From the NCBI GenBank assembly GCA_964623985.1, contig CAZUXG010000002.1:17106-81105 (forward strand): a DNA stretch of 64,000 bases, given 5' to 3'. This DNA is from an uncultured Thermodesulfobacteriota bacterium (GTDB taxonomy: Bacteria; Desulfobacterota; Anaeroferrophillalia; Anaeroferrophillales; Tharpellaceae). The notes beneath the pieces were generated by a model. The model was not told where the DNA came from. It ran no database searches and was given only the letters and a program-made list of their open reading frames with translations. Made by a program: the position numbers and the translations under genes. Positions 9,920 to 45,341 of this stretch are shown here, piece after piece (position 1 is the stretch's first letter; every line of letters begins with the position of its first letter).

Positions 9920-10873
9920 TCAAAAAACAATCCCCGACAGATCCTCCTCTATATGACTCTCATAAAACTGTTGACACAACTCTTCCCGAGCCATCCATTG
10001 ACCAGTTGCAACGGCAATAATCTCAAAAGATCCATCGGCCTTCTTTTGATAAAGAGCGCCCTTAGGATAGTAGAATTTCCTTATCCCACGCCCCCGCACT
10101 AAAGGAGCCGGAGCAACCCCGAACAACTCTTCACCAATATCCGGCAAGCGATTGAGATAGAGTTTAAAACGCACCGTATAACCGTACAGATCTCCAGCCA
10201 GAATCCCGCTCCAACCACAGAGTTCATCTAAAAGAGCCGCCAACACTCCGGGATGAAGAGTGCCTGAAGCCTGTTGAAATGAGGAAGCCAGCTGAAAGTC
10301 TTCAATTCCAGCGCCGCCGAAACGCACAATAATTGATGGCAAGTCGTCCACAACACGAAAGAACCGCCGCCTTAAACCAGGTTTCTGGCGCTTCAAACCA
10401 CAGACAAAACAGTTATCGTAGACAGCCAGAGCCTGGTGATGGGCACTCTTTTCTTGAAGCATCTCCGGTTCCAAAAGAGGGAAATCAACACCCGCTGCTT
10501 CTGTGGTAACCCTGACTTCAGCACTCAGGTAAATTTTATCACTACCCTGCCGGCGCATCGACAGAAGTAAACTATTTTCATCTTTAACAATGGCCTTCAA
10601 AATCATCTCATCACCGATACTAACGGTATCGGCAAAACGCCAATCAATTTCCAGAGGATAAACAAGGTTCTCCCCTTTGATTTGCAACCAGCAATGATCC
10701 GCCAGATCGAGCAGGGCGGTCATCGCCACACCACCATGTGGAATACCCTGCCAGCCTTCATGATCCCGACTGAAAACCATCCCCGTCTCAACACCGGAAT
10801 CACAATCACGAATTGAAGAAAAACAAAACTTGTCGTGACAGGCAAAACAAGCCTCATGTCCAGTAACCTGCAT
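9920..10873 (-). CDS. Tandem hotdog-fold (PaaI/4HBT thioesterase-like) domain protein with Cys-rich motifs
   Basis: 317 aa. Two hotdog-like cores (GIPHGGVAMTALLDLADHC and LHPGVLAALLDELCGW), each preceded by a CxxC-type motif (CFACHDKFC, CFVCG). Strong RBS AAGGGAG. Confidence 0.5.
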   Translation of the reverse strand: MQVTGHEACFACHDKFCFSSIRDCDSGVETGMVFSRDHEGWQGIPHGGVAMTALLDLADHCWLQIKGENLVYPLEIDWRFADTVSIGDEMILKAIVKDENSLLLSMRRQGSDKIYLSAEVRVTTEAAGVDFPLLEPEMLQEKSAHHQALAVYDNCFVCGLKRQKPGLRRRFFRVVDDLPSIIVRFGGAGIEDFQLASSFQQASGTLHPGVLAALLDELCGWSGILAGDLYGYTVRFKLYLNRLPDIGEELFGVAPAPLVRGRGIRKFYYPKGALYQKKADGSFEIIAVATGQWMAREELCQQFYESHIEEDLSGIVF

Positions 10874-16074: not shown

Positions 16075-16460
16075 ATCGCTTTGGATGAAGTGACATGGTC
16101 AAGTAAAAATGGACACTTTTCTTAGGCTGCTTTGCTCTTAACCATCATTTTTTCAAAATCTTTTGGGCTCATATATCCCAGATATGAGTGACGGCGTTTG
16201 CGGTTATAGAACATTTCGATATAATCGACTATATCCCGTCGAGCTGACTCCCTGGTTTTATATTGGGAACCATGCACCCGTTCGGTTTTCAGACTACCAA
16301 AAAAACTTTCCGCTACACTATTATCCCAGCCGTGCCCTTTGCGACTCATGCTGCTGATCATGTCGTACTTCTTCAACTCTTTTTGAAAATCATGACTACA
16401 ATACTGGCTGTCTCTATCAGAATGAAAGATGAGCCCGGCCTCCGACAATCTCCATTAATT
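16075..16460 (-). mobile_element. IS3-family transposase remnant (C-terminal part of OrfB integrase core only)
   Basis: Translation LIFHSDRDSQYCS...DNSVAESFFGSLKTERVH...YIEMFYNRKRRHSYLGYMSPKDFE is the IS3 DDE-domain C-terminus. The N-terminal half and OrfA are absent. Confidence 0.7.
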
Positions 16461-39269: not shown

Positions 39270-42077
39270 CTAACCCGGCAACACCTCTCGCAGACATTGA
39301 CCGGTTGCCGAGTCTGACACTTGCGCCACCTCTTCCGGAGTCCCGCAAGCAACCAGTCGACCGCCGCCAACTCCGCCATCGGGACCCAGATCGATGAGAT
39401 AGTCAGCCGCCTTTATAATATCAAGATTGTGTTCGATAACAATTACCGAATTACTTTCGGTCACCAGCCTCTGCAAGACCTTGAGCAATTGTTTTACATC
39501 ATGAAAATGGAGTCCGGTTGTCGGCTCATCGAGCAAAAACAGGGTCCGGCCGGTTGCCCGCTTGGCCAGTTCACGTGCCAGTTTAACCCGTTGTGCCTCA
39601 CCCCCAGAGAGGGTCACCGCACCCTGCCCCAAAGTCATGTAACCGAGACCGACATCCTTTAAAACCCCAAGTTTACCGATCACCTTAGGAATTGCGGCAA
39701 AAAATTCAGCCGCCTGATTAATGGTCATGTCCAACACTTCGGCAATATTCGCCCCTTTATAACGTATCTCCAGTACCTCTCGGGTAAAACGCCGGCCGTT
39801 GCAAGAGTCGCATTTGACAAAGATGTCGGGTAAAAAATGCATCTCAACCCGGGTCACACCATCCCCCTTGCAAGCTTCGCAGCGGCCCCCCTTGACATTA
39901 AAACTGAATCGTCCCGGATTATAACCCCGCGTTCTGGCCTCCGGTAAACCGGCAAAAAGTTCACGAATCGGCGTAAAGAGACCAGTGTAGGTCGCCGGAT
40001 TAGAGCGCGGCGTCCGCCCGATCGGGCTTTGGTCGATACTGATCACTTTATCGAGCTGATCGAGACCACTGATCTCCTGAAAAGTTCCAACCGGGAAACG
40101 GTCACCGTAAAGATGATTGTGGAGAGCCGGATAGAGGGTCTCATTTATCAAGCTGCTTTTCCCGGACCCTGAAACCCCGGTCACGCAAAGCAGCAAACCA
40201 AGAGGAAATTCGACATCAATCTCCTGGAGATTGTGCTGAGCTACTCCCTTAATAACGATACACCGCTGCCGATCAACCGTTCTCCGTTCCGGAAGCTCTA
40301 TTTTTTTTCGGCCCGAGAGATAGAGCCCAGTCAATGAATCTCCGGCTGCGACCTCCTCAGGTCGCCCCTGGGCGACAACCTCACCACCTAGACGGCCGGC
40401 CCCGGGCCCCATATCGATAACTTGGTCAGCCGCCATGATTGTCTCCTGATCATGTTCAACCACCAGCAATGAATTACCCAGGTCACGCAGTTTCATTAAA
40501 GCCTGAAGAAGACGGCGATTATCTCGCTGATGCAGACCGATACTGGGTTCGTCAAGAACATAGAGAACCCCGGTCAACCCCGAGCCGATCTGGGTCGCCA
40601 GCCGGATTCGTTGCGACTCCCCGCCGGAAAGCGTGGCACTGGCCCGTTCCAGACTTAAATAGTCAAGGCCGACATCAATCAGAAACTGCAAGCGAGCGTA
40701 AAGCTCACCAAGAATCCGCCGGGCTACAACCTGTTGAGCCGGCGGCAGCTTAAGAGCAGTCAAAAATTTAAGGGTCTGGGGTAACGAATAGCAGGTTAGT
40801 TCATAAATATTTAAACCTGACACTTTAACCTGCAAACTCTCCTGATTTAAACGGCTACCGTGACAAAGAGAACAGAGTTGTGGTGAAAGATAACGCAAAA
40901 ACTCACTGTCATGCTCACCAGCAGCCTTCTCATAGCGCCTTTTTAAACTGGGGATGACCCCTTCAAATTTTCTCTCAGGAGAGTGCTGATAACGTCCATC
41001 GGCAAGCAAACCGGGGATTTTGTCCCGCCCCGACCCCGAAAAAATTATCTTCTTGATCTTTTGCGAAAGCTTGGCAAAAGGAACCATCAACGAAAAATCG
41101 TAATGCCGAGAGAGCGGCTCCAAAACTTCACTGCGATAGAAAGAGAGTGATTTGCGCCAGGGGGCGAGGGCCCCCTCGGCGAGGCTTAAAGATGGATCGG
41201 GAACAATCAACTCGACATCAAAAACCAGATCCCGCCCCAGACCGCTGCACTCGGGACAGGCACCATGCGGATTATTAAAGGAGAACAGACGCGGTGAAAG
41301 CTCGGCAAAACTGATGCCGCAATCACTACAGGCCAGACGGCGGGAAAAAAGTTGGCGTTCCCCGTTTACGACCTGCACCGCTACCAGATCGTCAGCTTTG
41401 TCCAGCGCCAGCTCCAGCGAATCAACCAGACGGCTACGACTTTCTAAATTGACAACCAGACGATCGACCACCAAAGAGATATCATGGTAACGCTGGCGGT
41501 CAAGAAGAGGCGGAGAATCAAGCCGATAAATTTCACCATCCACCTCAATGCGCAAAAACCCCTGACTCAGCAAATCACTAAAAAGTTTGCGATACTCTCC
41601 TTTGCGGCGGCGCACGAGCGGAGCCATAATCATCAATTTGGTTCCAACCGGCATTCTTTCAATTGCATCAGCTATCTGGTCGACCGTTTGTGAAGTGATC
41701 GGCTGACCACATTTAGCACAGTAAGCAACCCCGACCCGAGCGTAGAGCAGGCGCAGATAATCATAAATTTCGGTCACCGTCCCCACGGTTGAACGAGGGT
41801 TATGAGAAACCTTTTTCTGATCGATCGAGATCGCCGGCGAGAGTCCCAAAATCTCATCTACATCAGGTTTTTCCATAAGCTGCAGAAACTGCCGGGCGTA
41901 GGCCGACAGAGACTCAACATAGCGTCTTTGCCCCTCAGCATAAACCGTATCAAAGGCCAGTGATGATTTGCCGGAACCACTCAAGCCAGTTATAACCACA
42001 AACTGCCGCCGGGGAATGACTAGGCTGATATTTTTAAGGTTATGTTCCCGAGCACCTTTAATTACAATTTCTTCCAC
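39270..42077 (-). CDS. uvrA: Excinuclease ABC subunit A
   Basis: 935 aa with two ABC ATPase modules ([27 protein letters not shown]) and zinc-finger inserts. Confidence 0.9.
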
Positions 42078-42194
42078 GCTACATTCTCAAAATATTAGAA
42101 AAAAGTTGGTTAGATTTTTCTTGAAAAACCTGAATTATTCAATTAACCTTACATATATTTTACAATACCGCAACCATAAGTCTAAGGAGCATCC

Positions 42195-43529
42195 ATGACA
42201 ATCACTGGCCTGCGATTTTTAACTTTTATTTCGATCTTTTCCTGCCTTTTTCTTCCCTCTGCAGGCCAAACTGGAGAAACTGATTTCCGCCTCATATATA
42301 TAGGTTCTCTCTCAGGCTATGTCAATCTTTGCGGTTGACATAAGAAACAGGTGGGCGGTCTAGCCCGCCAGAAAATGGTGATCGATCTTCTGCGTCAGGA
42401 CGCAGGCACAGGAAAAAGCCTGTTTATCAACAGTGGGAACCTGACCAAAAGGACCACCAAGAATGATTTTGAGATTAAACGCCAAGTCATCAAAACCGCC
42501 CTTAAAAGCTATGAAATTATCGACACTGAAATCTTCACCCCGGGAACCCAAGAATTGATTTACGGACGGCAGATGATGAACTCACTAAAAATTAATGCCC
42601 CCAAGAGTACCATTCTTTGCGGCAACCTGGACGGAGTGCCGATTCCGGGAATCGAAACTCATAAAGTTTTCACCATCAACAATAAGAAGATCCTGGTTAC
42701 GGCGATCATCGATCCGGACCTTGAAAAAAAGGCGATTCACGGACTGCGGACCAAGGATCCATTTGCAATTCTGGAGGAGATCCTCAAAACTCCGCACGAC
42801 CTGGCCATTGCAGTCCTGCACTTTTCCGACGCCAAAGCCCACCAACTCATCCGCCGCATTGCCGGTCTTGATATAGCTATCCTGGGAACCCAGCGGGGAA
42901 CTATACAGGGGAGCAAACTCGTTAATGGATGCTGGCTGATTAAAAACAATAACCAAGGGAAAACTATCGGCTATCTGGATTGGGATTTTACGGCTGAATC
43001 TCCGACAACCACCAAACTCATCACGGTCGATAAAAAGACGTATGAAACCGACCAGAGGATTGTCAATCTGGTCAGTGACTATGAGACCTGGCTGCGGCAG
43101 CACTATATCGAAGTGGAAAAAAGCAAAAAGAAAACAACCACTGAACTGCCCGCCAAAGTCCCCTATGTCGGCAGCCAGACCTGCGGTACCTGCCATCCCA
43201 AGATTACCGCCTCATGGAAAAACACCAAACATGCCCGGGCCTACGCCAGCCTAGAAAAAAAGTGCAGGGACTTCTGCCCAGACTGTCTATTCTGTCACGT
43301 CACCGGCAGCCCGGAACATGGCAAACAAGGCTTTCGTTCACCAACAGCCACTCCGCATCTCTTCAACATCCAGTGCGAGGAGTGCCACGGCCCAGCCGAG
43401 AAACATCTCAAAAATCCGAACCGCCCTTATGGTCTGGAAATTAAAGCTTTGACCTGCACCATCTGCCACACAGCCAATACCGACCCGGAGTTCTCTTTTG
43501 AAAAAGATCTGAAGCTAATTGATCACTAA
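42195..43529 (+). CDS. Secreted tetrahaem c-type cytochrome fused to a degenerate 5'-nucleotidase/metallophosphatase-like domain; one in-frame UGA at 42336-42338 (candidate selenocysteine, or a pseudogene)
   Basis: AAGGAG RBS, then ATG 42195, encoding a Sec signal peptide [25 protein letters not shown]. It is in frame, through a single TGA, with the ORF 42351-43529. That ORF has a UshA-like pattern ([23 protein letters not shown]) lacking the metal ligands, and four CxxCH motifs (CGTCH, CLFCH, CEECH, CTICH). Confidence 0.5.
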
Positions 43530-43626: not shown

Positions 43627-43668
43627 CAAAAAAAGAAACCGGGAGTGCATAACCCACTCCCGGTTTCT
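43627..43668 (-). terminator. Rho-independent terminator downstream of the acyl-CoA synthetase gene (may act bidirectionally)
   Basis: AGAAACCGGGAGTG-cataacc-CACTCCCGGTTTCT is a 14 bp stem. A T-run follows on the minus strand (A7 on the plus strand). Confidence 0.65.
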
Positions 43669-43700
43669 TTAATCAGCAATAGCCAAGTTGACAAATATTA

Positions 43701-45281
43701 CTAGACCAGACTCTGAAAGGCCTCCTTGCGACCAGTATATTTCTCCCGCATCTGGGGCTTCATCAGTTTACCGGTCGGATTTCGCATTACCTGATCAAAC
43801 TTGACAACCCGAGGTAATTTATAGGTCGCAAGTCGATCTTTGGTAAAATTAAGCAGTTCTTCAGAGGTCAGGGCCCGCCCCTCTTTCAGCTGAACAATGA
43901 CCATCACCGCCTCAACCAGGCGTTCGTCCGGGGTCCCGATACAGGCTACATCATCAATATCAGGATGTTCCATTAAGACATCTTCAATTTCGACCGGAAA
44001 AATATTTTCGCCACCACAGGTAATCATATCTTTCTTGCGATCGACGATATAGTAGTAACCATCGTCATCGGTCTTCAAAAGATCCCCGGTATAGAGCCAG
44101 CCATTCTTTAAAAAATCAGCCGTCATCTCGGGGTTACCAAAATAACCCTTCATCATCCGGGGGGTCTTAAAGATCAGCTCGCCAACCTCTTCTGGACCAA
44201 CTTCATTACCGGCAAAATCAACCAGTTGGGCTTCAACACCAAACGTCGGCTTACCGATCGAGCCAGGCCGCTCCAGAACTTCATCAGGATAGAGGTTAAA
44301 GGAGCCACCCCCACCGCCTTCGGTAATACCGTAGATATTTGAAACCCCGCAAGGCAGGATTTTAACTAGCCGTTTCATAACATCAAAAGGCACCGGTTGA
44401 GCCCCGATTTCCATATATCTCCAGCTCGAAAGATCGTAGTCTTCAAGTTTGATATCACCCTTATCAATCGCATTAAGAATCGCAACCGCAATCGGTACGA
44501 CAAAAAGGACATCGGTCGCCTGCTCTTCGGCTAGGGCTTCGATAATCCATTTAGGATCCTTAAGATCTCTTAGAATTGTCCCGGTAGCTCCAGTAGCATA
44601 AAAAGGAGCCCAAAGAAACATCGTACCACTATGATAGAGAGGCAGGAAGAAGAGATAGTTATCATTCTTTTCAATAAAATAACTCATCCCATTACCAATT
44701 GCTGTACTATTCAACGAAAAGTGGGTGTGGAGCACCGGTTTGGGTTTGCCGGTAGTCCCAGAAGTAAACATCATCGCCAGATCAGTATCGTCGGTAACCT
44801 CGACCAAAGCTTCGGAAGTATCGTCGTGGGCTGCCAGTTCTCGATAATCAAGCATCCCATCACCAATTTTATCACCAACACAAACAAAGTGCTCAATCGT
44901 CGTCAACGCTTCCCGAACCGGCTCCACAACCGACAAAAATTCGGATCCGAATATAAAGACTTTAGGACTCGATACCTCGGCTGCAAACTTGATATCATTG
45001 CCGACAAAACGGAAATTGAGTGGTACCACAACGCCACCGAGCTTGATAATGGCATAGTAACTGACCAACCACTCAAAGCTGTTGTTCTGTAGGTGCATAA
45101 CATAGTCACCCTGCTTGACGCCTAACTTCTTACTCAAATAGTTGGCAACCCGGTTGATCGCTTGATTAAACTCTTTCCAGGTCAAAGTACGCCGCTCACC
45201 GGTCGCCGGGGTTCGCTCAATTAAACAGATCTTTTCAGGCAGATGGCGGGCATGCAGGCAGGCATAGTTGGCATAATTCAT
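43701..45281 (-). CDS. AMP-dependent synthetase/ligase (acyl-CoA synthetase family)
   Basis: AMP-binding motif MFTSGTTGKPKPV, and YGITE and GWLYTGD motifs. Start set at the ATG with AAGGAG 10 nt upstream, three codons inside the GTG-initiated ORF. Confidence 0.8.
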   Translation of the reverse strand: MNYANYACLHARHLPEKICLIERTPATGERRTLTWKEFNQAINRVANYLSKKLGVKQGDYVMHLQNNSFEWLVSYYAIIKLGGVVVPLNFRFVGNDIKFAAEVSSPKVFIFGSEFLSVVEPVREALTTIEHFVCVGDKIGDGMLDYRELAAHDDTSEALVEVTDDTDLAMMFTSGTTGKPKPVLHTHFSLNSTAIGNGMSYFIEKNDNYLFFLPLYHSGTMFLWAPFYATGATGTILRDLKDPKWIIEALAEEQATDVLFVVPIAVAILNAIDKGDIKLEDYDLSSWRYMEIGAQPVPFDVMKRLVKILPCGVSNIYGITEGGGGGSFNLYPDEVLERPGSIGKPTFGVEAQLVDFAGNEVGPEEVGELIFKTPRMMKGYFGNPEMTADFLKNGWLYTGDLLKTDDDGYYYIVDRKKDMITCGGENIFPVEIEDVLMEHPDIDDVACIGTPDERLVEAVMVIVQLKEGRALTSEELLNFTKDRLATYKLPRVVKFDQVMRNPTGKLMKPQMREKYTGRKEAFQSLV

Positions 45282-45341
45282 CGTTCTCACACTCCTTCTT
45301 TAGAGAAATTATAACTTTGATTCATTCGTAAAAAGTCTCAG

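Follow-up and report, generated by a model that had tools for sequence, protein, structure and literature searches.

A predicted, mis-annotated all-selenocysteine branch of the UshA-like tetrahaem protein family in Tharpellota-like Desulfobacterota

The window analysed here is a 64,000-nucleotide (nt) stretch of contig CAZUXG010000002.1 (positions 17,106 to 81,105, forward strand) from an uncultured Thermodesulfobacteriota bacterium, and the subject of this report is a gene on its + strand at 42195–43529 that is predicted to encode an exported tetrahaem cytochrome containing selenocysteine (Sec). Direct reading of the sequence places the start codon ATG 42195, an internal TGA at 42336–42338 and the terminal TAA at 43527–43529 in the same frame. 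A 47-codon open reading frame (ORF) runs from this ATG up to the TGA, and a Shine-Dalgarno sequence, AAGGAG (42184–42189, + strand), is found 5 nt before the ATG. When read through the TGA, the ORF is 445 codons in length: as a putative complete selenoprotein gene with one in-frame UGA at codon 48, it specifies 444 residues plus a stop. A signal peptide of the Sec export type (approximately residues 1–25, 42195–42269, + strand; the cleavage site is approximate) lies 5' of the TGA, with a basic n-region (one Arg) followed by a 12-residue hydrophobic core (hydropathy 2.42). The UGA itself stands in the motif Cys46-Gly47-Sec48-His49 (TGC GGT TGA CAT, 42330–42341, + strand), in which 42336–42338 would be the Sec codon. 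A preliminary description of the window had proposed this layout (the 47-codon ORF with its AAGGAG, the TGA, a downstream ORF in the same frame and four CxxCH haem motifs) and had recognized the signal peptide; both proposals agree with our reading of the sequence.

The TGA is a constant element of this gene. The orthologue set comprises the window and 20 further loci, 15 from species-representative genomes and five from JGI metagenomes, with 44–100% identity; the genomes are metagenome-assembled genomes (MAGs) labelled Thermodesulfobacteriota or 'Deltaproteobacteria', one of which is Candidatus Tharpella aukensis. Exactly one in-frame stop is present in 21/21 orthologues, and it is always TGA at the same codon (L/P-C-G-U-H); the terminal stops, by comparison, differ (TAA, TAG or TGA). 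As in the window, all 20 loci have the upstream ATG, the signal peptide and a conserved mature N-terminus, and after the TGA all orthologous loci read H-[KR]-x-Q-x-GGL-x-R. The basic n-region and hydrophobic core of the signal peptide are present in 16/16 full-length orthologues examined. The genes from the 15 genome and five metagenome loci are intact, encoding 443–449 amino acids (aa) in an identical layout. With this one TGA found again in each of the 20 further loci, the pattern is far beyond chance.

For the TGA at 42336–42338, the preliminary description had kept two alternatives in view, a nonsense-mutated pseudogene and a sequencing error, to which an assembly error may be added. One window alone cannot exclude any of these, and gene callers did split the gene. 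All are refuted: 20 further, independent assemblies, with protein identities as low as 44%, have TGA at this codon, and purifying selection is seen on both flanks of the codon in copies that are, without exception, intact. A single erroneous reference behind all of the assemblies is excluded by their 44–84% divergence. We therefore assign a pseudogene or an error next to no probability.

It could also be argued that the locus makes two products, with the UGA ending a 47-residue peptide and the haem protein starting at GTG 42351 or later. This GTG does exist in the window, 12 nt past the UGA (it is the start codon used in mechanical ORF lists), and all public annotations use downstream starts: on the public metagenome contig (68,930 bp; ENA ERZ27316679), the gene is annotated as a 384-residue protein beginning well past the TGA. 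Similarly, a protein search yields 48 close relatives (44–100% identity, 302–408 aa in length, coverage no greater than 88%), none of which extends to the N-terminus of the read-through query, because gene callers halt at the conserved in-frame stop. However, 14/16 orthologues have GCG in place of the GTG, no alternative downstream start codon is conserved, and the N-termini chosen by gene callers are spread over proteins of 302–408 aa. Haem attachment in the periplasm would be required for the downstream part, which is itself devoid of a signal peptide. The pre-UGA segment is colinear with the N-terminus of full-length homologues, and its 22 mature residues correspond to the first beta-strand and the CG[U/C] loop, which are contiguous in 108 homologues with Cys at the UGA position (discussed below). 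The peptide encoded by this segment is conserved despite synonymous codon variation (majority-codon fractions are 0.40–0.44 at L33, S40 and G47); such variation under amino-acid conservation indicates that the segment is translated in this frame. Finally, 16/45 of the window's large ORFs end in TGA, which shows that the standard genetic code is in use. Between them, the orthologue TGA pattern, the synonymous variation, the lack of a conserved downstream start and the standard code exclude a pseudogene, a sequencing error and a pair of genes for practical purposes, and the two-product arrangement is accordingly rated as very improbable.

In more distant homologues, the position of the UGA is occupied by cysteine. 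A first search identified a single full-length match, P0049 (26% identity), whose ...GRIEPCGCFENQLGGLTRL... aligns across the UGA region of the window. When P0049 was used as the query, more than 100 full-length proteins were recovered from Verrucomicrobiota, Planctomycetota and Thermodesulfobacteriota. These Cys-type proteins share the pattern G-x-[LI]-x-P-C-G-C-x(3-6)-GGL-x-R together with four CxxCH motifs, and in a joint alignment the UGA-codon column is Cys (in the PCGC motif) in 108/108 full-length Cys-type homologues. Alignment at this codon had been suggested in the preliminary description as a check on the Cys-x-Sec pair that it put forward; with TGA in 21/21 orthologues and Cys in 108/108 distant homologues, the pair is both real and conserved. 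No Cys-type member was found inside the Sec clade in a metagenome scan. His49, directly after Sec, is present in 21/21 Sec-clade genes, while the Cys-type homologues have Phe, Ser, Ala, Thr or Asn at this position. The invariant His49 could serve either catalysis or the decoding context, since UGA-CAY is also found in Escherichia coli fdhF.

A hairpin resembling a selenocysteine insertion sequence (SECIS) is located at 42350–42369 (+ strand), with a stem formed by 42350–42356 and 42363–42369 and an apical loop of GGUCUA (42357–42362). The preliminary description had placed a hairpin at 42352–42370, starting 13 nt after the UGA; a hairpin does exist, but this register is incorrect, as the 7-base-pair (bp) stem starts 11 nt past the UGA. 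The predicted minimum free energy is -17.2 kcal/mol (z = -3.05; 1/200 shuffles were as good). Counting from the U of UGA, the stem begins at nt 15 and the loop sequence GGUCU is at nt 22–26; GGUCU[A/G] (nt 22–27) is conserved in 21/21 orthologues. The 30 nt that follow the UGA are near-invariant in clade DNA (UGA CAY AAR AAA CAG GCG GGC GGU CUG GCC CGN CAR). RNAalifold predicts 6/7 stem pairs, omitting the variable 25-42 pair, and 92% of cells in the hairpin alignment are paired (compared to 23–48% in slid controls). Synonymous-site conservation peaks around the UGA, at 0.81–0.82 versus a gene mean of 0.70, and the stem codons CAG GCG GGC GGT (Q52, A53, G54 and G55) are 88–100% identical across 16 orthologous genes. 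All three Cys-type genes read as DNA lack the hairpin and have other Gly-Gly-Leu codons.

The hairpin was compared with the SECIS of E. coli fdhF (UGACACGGCCCAUCGGUUGCAGGUCUGCACC...), a 42-mer that matches fdhF at 95% identity or greater in 5,419/5,426 E. coli genomes. The two elements have in common a UGA-CAY context, a stem that begins 11 nt past the UGA and GGUCU at nt 22–26, including G23 and U24, which are known as the SelB contacts of fdhF. Unlike fdhF, the window element has a short, GC-rich stem (7 bp, one of which is not conserved), and a clearly bulged U17 is missing in most orthologues.

Several observations weigh against a selenoprotein gene at this locus. The hairpin shows 0 compensatory double changes and five one-sided G-U changes (the covariation test is uninformative here because the hairpin sequence is nearly invariant), and half of the sequences in alignment A2 do not form stem pair 25-42. 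Part of the hairpin sequence is dictated by the conserved Gly-Gly-Leu peptide. Scans of 42300–42420 against Rfam, both at the gathering threshold and at E <= 10, identified no matching family, the chance matches being to a flavivirus frameshift element, a microRNA and a small RNA; Rfam is without a usable bacterial SECIS model. No tRNA-Sec was detected by tRNA scans in the window or in loci L001–L015, and no second selenoprotein candidate was found either in the window, using a scan for TGA-split ORFs, or in the scanned DNA of loci L001–L015. In NCBIfam, the family ranked first for the window protein is NF041198 UshA_like_PCGU, a 'UshA-like (seleno)protein' model (E 6.5e-56), which speaks for Sec. 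Its 190 bits fall short of the 275-bit cut-off, as do the 200 and 214 bits of two further clade members, and this shortfall weighs against the mechanism proposed below.

The missing SECIS call in Rfam would also suit a UGA that is read through with insertion of Trp, Cys or Gly (standard amino acids, through near-cognate decoding or recoding) in place of Sec. This is contradicted by the use of TGA as a normal stop for 16/45 window ORFs, by the strict occurrence of TGA opposite Cys in homologues, which is the signature of a Sec/Cys pair, by the match between the hairpin and the fdhF SECIS in both loop sequence and spacing, and by the fact that the family is already curated as a selenoprotein family (PMC13188914). 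Insertion of a standard amino acid is considered very unlikely. The selenoprotein reading of the window gene is, by comparison of sequences, strongly supported, and the overall best explanation of 42195–43529 is a single intact gene for an exported selenoprotein, to which we assign a probability of roughly 0.88. The proposal in the preliminary description that the two ORFs are one gene read through UGA as Sec has thus been upheld by the orthologues, by the Cys-type homologues and by the fdhF-like hairpin.

The NF041198 profile (519 positions) matches the window protein in two stretches, the better of which (residues 274–436) covers the haem region and reaches the profile end. The model describes a UshA-like N-domain followed by a C-terminal multihaem region, and fold and Pfam searches find both in the window protein. 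As its 190 bits are below the 275-bit cut-off, the window protein is a relative outside the NF041198 equivalog and not a member of it. With respect to the P-C-G-U/C motif of the model, C-G-U is present, and the window and 19/20 orthologues have Leu where the model has Pro (locus L013 has PCGU). The Cys-type protein P0101, which is 27% identical to and colinear with window residues 31–444, passes the cut-off with 289.6 bits, and nine other branches of the superfamily that were tested fall below it (167–242 bits). Judging from these scores, the equivalog is one branch of a larger family in which the window clade appears as a separate, all-Sec branch. A profile search of 1.84 billion cluster representatives produced 5,335 matches at E <= 1e-30; among the best 150 of these, nearly all span almost the whole two-domain profile, and a few are truncated proteins.

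The wider family is not new to the literature. 'UshA-like' (COG0737) CxU selenoproteins, a family attributed to Zhang & Gladyshev, ranked among the major families in 2008, when the Global Ocean Sampling analysis recorded 76 Sec sequences (PMC2398784), and are included in a 2022 review (PMC9312934) and in a 2026 review that cites NF041198 (PMC13188914). No assigned function or solved structure was found for them in the literature. The preliminary description had considered a Cys/Sec site joined to a phosphatase scaffold and four haems to be a novel architecture. This suggestion does not stand: NF041198 spans both the N-domain and the haem domain, P0101 (above the cut-off) has the same architecture, and the arrangement is both catalogued in the three publications cited and represented by the 5,335 profile matches.

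The window clade and NF041198, both within a broad 'UshA-like PCG[C/U] tetrahaem' superfamily, share the signal peptide, the 5'-nucleotidase-like N-domain, the C-G-[C/U] loop and the tetrahaem c554-like C-domain. In contrast to NF041198, proteins of the window clade are approximately 75 residues shorter than the profile, have Leu before CGU in all but one orthologue, have an invariant His after Sec and carry an extra C-x3-C before haem 2; they also lack two Asp ligands that are still common among NF041198 relatives, are all Sec-type and are found in Tharpellota-like MAGs only. The window gene is thus predicted to represent a new, mis-annotated all-Sec subfamily of a catalogued selenoprotein family, forming a distinct clade in Tharpellota-like, deep-branching Desulfobacterota. 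The public records of this clade examined here all describe an N-terminally truncated 'hypothetical protein' or 'multiheme cytochrome' of 302–408 residues without a signal peptide, when the true product would be an exported selenoprotein of 444 residues. The clade escapes the curated model, with the result that the selenoproteomes of these lineages are undercounted. The Cys-type relatives number in the thousands in Verrucomicrobiota and Planctomycetota.

The N-domain (approximately residues 30–300, 42282–43094, + strand) is predicted to have the 5'-nucleotidase/UshA fold of calcineurin-like metallophosphoesterases, with a degenerate dimetal site. The N-terminal 300 positions of a wider-family profile match 5'-nucleotidases (5h7w, CD73 and UshA) at E 1e-19 to 1e-25 and SoxB at 1e-15. 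Structural models were built for window residues 49–444 and, separately, for the full-length Cys homologue P0049. In Foldseek, the N-domain of the AlphaFold2 model of P0049 (pLDDT 92.2, pTM 0.90) is grouped with 5'-nucleotidases (E approximately 1e-19), and the alpha/beta sandwich of the 5'-nucleotidase N-domain is recovered. Pfam gives no Metallophos match in the window protein and no match to 5_nucleotid_C, the C-terminal nucleotide-binding domain, in whose place the cytochrome domain is found. The two domains named in the preliminary description, a 5'-nucleotidase-fold N-domain with a degenerate metal site and a tetrahaem c554-like C-domain, are both recovered by the Pfam, profile and Foldseek searches.

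The metal and catalytic positions were mapped using an alignment that includes a 5'-nucleotidase fragment. The Asp and His of motif I are replaced by S38 and S40, the Asp of motif II by N82 (16/16 in the clade), the Asn and catalytic His of motif III by T118 and Q119, and the His of motif V by T232, while the His of motif IV is kept as H209 (15/16). In total, 6/7 canonical metallophosphoesterase positions are substituted and 1/7 is retained; the earlier statement that every metal ligand is replaced is correct but for H209. Sec48 was also thought to fall where the NDHHG metal motif would be. The motif I equivalents are instead S38 and S40, and Sec48 is 8 residues past motif I, in the loop before the GGLARQK helix (helix 1). 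Two Asp ligands adjacent to PCGC persist in approximately half of the Cys-type relatives and are both missing from the Sec clade. On the basis of these substitutions, the phosphatase site of the window N-domain is predicted to be gone. In comparison to UshA, CD73 and SoxB, then, the window protein has 6/7 metal or catalytic residues replaced and a haem domain instead of the C-terminal nucleotide-binding domain. From an evolutionary standpoint, this would be a clear example of a hydrolase fold whose metal site disappeared and whose scaffold came to carry a Cys/Sec redox loop connected to haems. Membership among the SoxB thiosulfohydrolases (TIGR04486) was considered and rejected, with a score of 25 bits versus the 550 required and the dimanganese-site ligands lost.

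The C-terminal domain (residues 321–444, 43155–43526, + strand) is a cytochrome c554-like tetrahaem domain. Its four CxxCH motifs, all on the + strand, are CGTCH (residues 330–334, 43182–43196), CLFCH (residues 364–368, 43284–43298), CEECH (residues 394–398, 43374–43388) and CTICH (residues 421–425, 43455–43469). Cytochrome_C554 (PF13435) is the sole Pfam match in the window protein, covering residues 329–399 with 47.2 bits (cut-off 20.8). The structure of cytochrome c554 (PDB 1bvb, from Nitrosomonas europaea) is matched at E 1.9e-27 by the C-terminal part of the family profile and at 6.5e-8 by the single sequence; it has four CxxCH in the same order and with the same spacing, as well as three conserved distal His. 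Cytochrome c554 differs from the window protein in being a free-standing electron carrier, with neither an N-terminal domain nor Sec. Across the family, conservation of non-motif His is limited to H346, H404 and H444, which leaves one of the four haems without a conserved distal His, as in c554 (haem 2). Cytochrome c554 itself has a five-coordinate haem without a protein ligand.

An extra Cys pair, C357-x3-C361 (43263–43277, + strand), is located directly 5' of the second haem motif. It is nearly invariant in the Sec clade, where it reads K-K-C-[KR]-D-[YF]-C-P-D, and it is absent both from the wider-family consensus (alignment A3, mostly Cys-type) and from c554. The pair could form a disulfide or act as an extra redox relay. 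Several stretches of PDB 6i5b, a 526-residue 'uncharacterized protein' that appears to hold repeated c554-like modules, match the haem domain (E 7.5e-25 for the family profile and 2e-8 for the window protein alone). PDB searches identified no solved structure that spans both domains.

The gene neighbourhood gives no lead as to function, so that the mechanism proposed here rests on anatomy and analogy; the lack of any conserved neighbour pointing to a substrate in the Sec-clade loci counts against it. The signal peptide and the four c-type haems indicate a periplasmic location. In the N-domain, whose catalytic site is otherwise inactivated, the principal conserved element is the C-G-[C/U] loop, which is strictly maintained. 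UshA structures show that in 5'-nucleotidases the loop following motif I lies at the edge of the active-site cleft, which is turned towards the C-terminal domain. The haem domain takes the place of this C-terminal domain and is attached via the same long linker helix.

The best functional analogue is MccSep (ExtKL, GSU2937-2936), a multihaem cytochrome c selenoprotein of Geobacter sulfurreducens. Both proteins are periplasmic multihaem c-type cytochromes, known or predicted, with Sec and a nearby Cys, and in both cases two apparent ORFs are joined by a UGA and a SECIS. MccSep differs in having five haems, Sec within the cytochrome fold and no phosphatase-like domain. Membership of the window protein in the MccSep family (NF040886) was rejected (19.8 bits versus a cut-off of 250, four haems versus five, and a different fold), and the match to the MccSep structure, PDB 9wt8 (E 0.009), involves the haem motifs only. 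Work published in 2026 established that MccSep acts as a polysulfide reductase in the periplasm and also reduces selenite (PMC13510729). Its Sec attacks the substrate, its Cys forms a Se-S(e)-S intermediate and its haems supply electrons (PMC13510729). This demonstration makes a second architecture combining haem and Sec a timely target.

The following sequence of events is proposed. The ribosome would initiate at ATG 42195; at UGA 42336, the fdhF-type SECIS hairpin 11 nt downstream would recruit SelB with Sec-tRNA, and Sec would be inserted as residue 48. The 444-residue product would then be exported through its Sec-type signal peptide, and four c-type haems would be attached in the periplasm. 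The initiation and Sec-insertion steps are based on comparative evidence, and the export and haem-attachment steps on the signal peptide and the four CxxCH. By analogy with MccSep, Cys46 and Sec48 would together make up a selenenylsulfide/selenolate redox centre located where the inactive phosphatase domain faces the haem domain, with the four haems passing electrons between this centre and a periplasmic electron-transfer chain. The substrate would be a small periplasmic compound in which the enzyme reductively cleaves or oxidatively forms S-S, S-Se or related bonds; candidates are polysulfide, thiosulfate or tetrathionate, selenite and possibly peroxide. Haem-fed Cys/Sec (selenenylsulfide) chemistry on a sulfur or selenium compound is put forward tentatively, at odds that we place somewhat below even.

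Sec48 and/or Cys46 may instead act as ligands and not as a free redox pair. Either residue might serve as axial ligand to the one haem without a conserved distal His, in the manner of the His/Cys haems found in MccSep, TsdA and SoxAX, or the two might belong to a new non-haem metal site, with His49 and His209, in place of the dimetal centre. Consistent with a ligand role are the count of only three conserved non-motif His for four haems, the pairing of Sec with a Cys-ligated haem in MccSep, the invariance of His49 in the Sec clade, the retention of H209 and the two Asp ligands kept beside PCGC in about half of the Cys-type relatives. However, c554 has a haem without a protein ligand, and the Sec clade has lost both Asp ligands. 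A ligand role is the main rival to the redox pair and is judged possible but not probable. A further option is that the protein is a selenoprotein but a mere electron shuttle, in which the CGU loop is structural or protective, for example as a redox-sensing switch. This would suit a monocistronic gene that stands among housekeeping genes with no partner enzyme, and c554 is itself an electron carrier. Sec is costly, though, and almost always catalytic, and CG[C/U] is the most conserved N-domain feature across a superfamily with thousands of representatives, and we regard the shuttle as unlikely.

The gene is conserved beside uvrA across a deep-branching, Desulfobacterota-related lineage lacking a recognized terminal electron acceptor. 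Tharpellota have complex I, a bc1 complex and haem biosynthesis, with no recognizable terminal reductase in any of eight MAGs, and an unidentified periplasmic acceptor, perhaps a sulfur compound, has been proposed for them (PMC9213671). It is plausible, if speculative, that the window selenoprotein is an overlooked candidate for the terminal reductase of Tharpellota; such a candidate would have been overlooked because gene callers remove both the signal peptide and Sec. In the boldest form of this idea, the CGU loop would be set against the haem lacking a distal His, and the protein would represent a second haem-selenoenzyme class, structurally unrelated to MccSep, that reduces polysulfide or another chalcogen and is perhaps the periplasmic terminal reductase of Tharpellota or a part of it. 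This is a rather doubtful proposition, though a second haem-selenoenzyme class or the missing reductase of the lineage would be of higher interest if true.

The selenoprotein gene is flanked by two genes on the - strand: a divergent uvrA (39270–42077) and a convergent AMP-dependent ligase gene (43701–45290). Throughout the Sec clade, the gene is monocistronic and is found either between uvrA and the AMP-ligase gene or beside mnmG. The neighbouring genes in the window are 82–92% identical to those of the Candidatus Tharpella aukensis MAG. Among Cys-type relatives, the gene is the last member of a DUF58 / BatA / DUF4159 ('aerotolerance'-like) cluster on a verrucomicrobial contig (L016 1-9392), and in two other genomes it is directly after a same-strand DUF1573 / HYDIN-type Ig-domain gene (L018 6829-9428; L019 6532-9614); these neighbourhoods suggest no clear function. 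In the window, a GC-rich hairpin with A- and T-run flanks (43632–43670, no strand assigned) was identified by a terminator scan, as a consensus match only. It is a perfect 16-bp palindrome between two convergent genes and is probably a bidirectional intrinsic terminator common to the selenoprotein gene and the AMP-ligase gene.

A gene for a Rex-type redox-sensing repressor (PF06971 and PF02629; 38578–39219, + strand) is located just past the 3' end of the opposite-strand uvrA, approximately 3 kb upstream of the selenoprotein gene, in an arrangement that is conserved in orthologous loci. Elsewhere in the window, the product of a short ORF at 16122–16448 (- strand) resembles by eye a core fragment of an IS3-family transposase/integrase (...HSDRDSQYCSHDFQKELKKYDMISSMSRKG...), which suggests the remnant of a decayed insertion sequence. 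An ORF at 9920–10873 (- strand) encodes 317 residues beginning with MQVTGHEACFACHDKFCFSS and including one CxxCH; its product may be another c-type cytochrome or a metal-binding protein.

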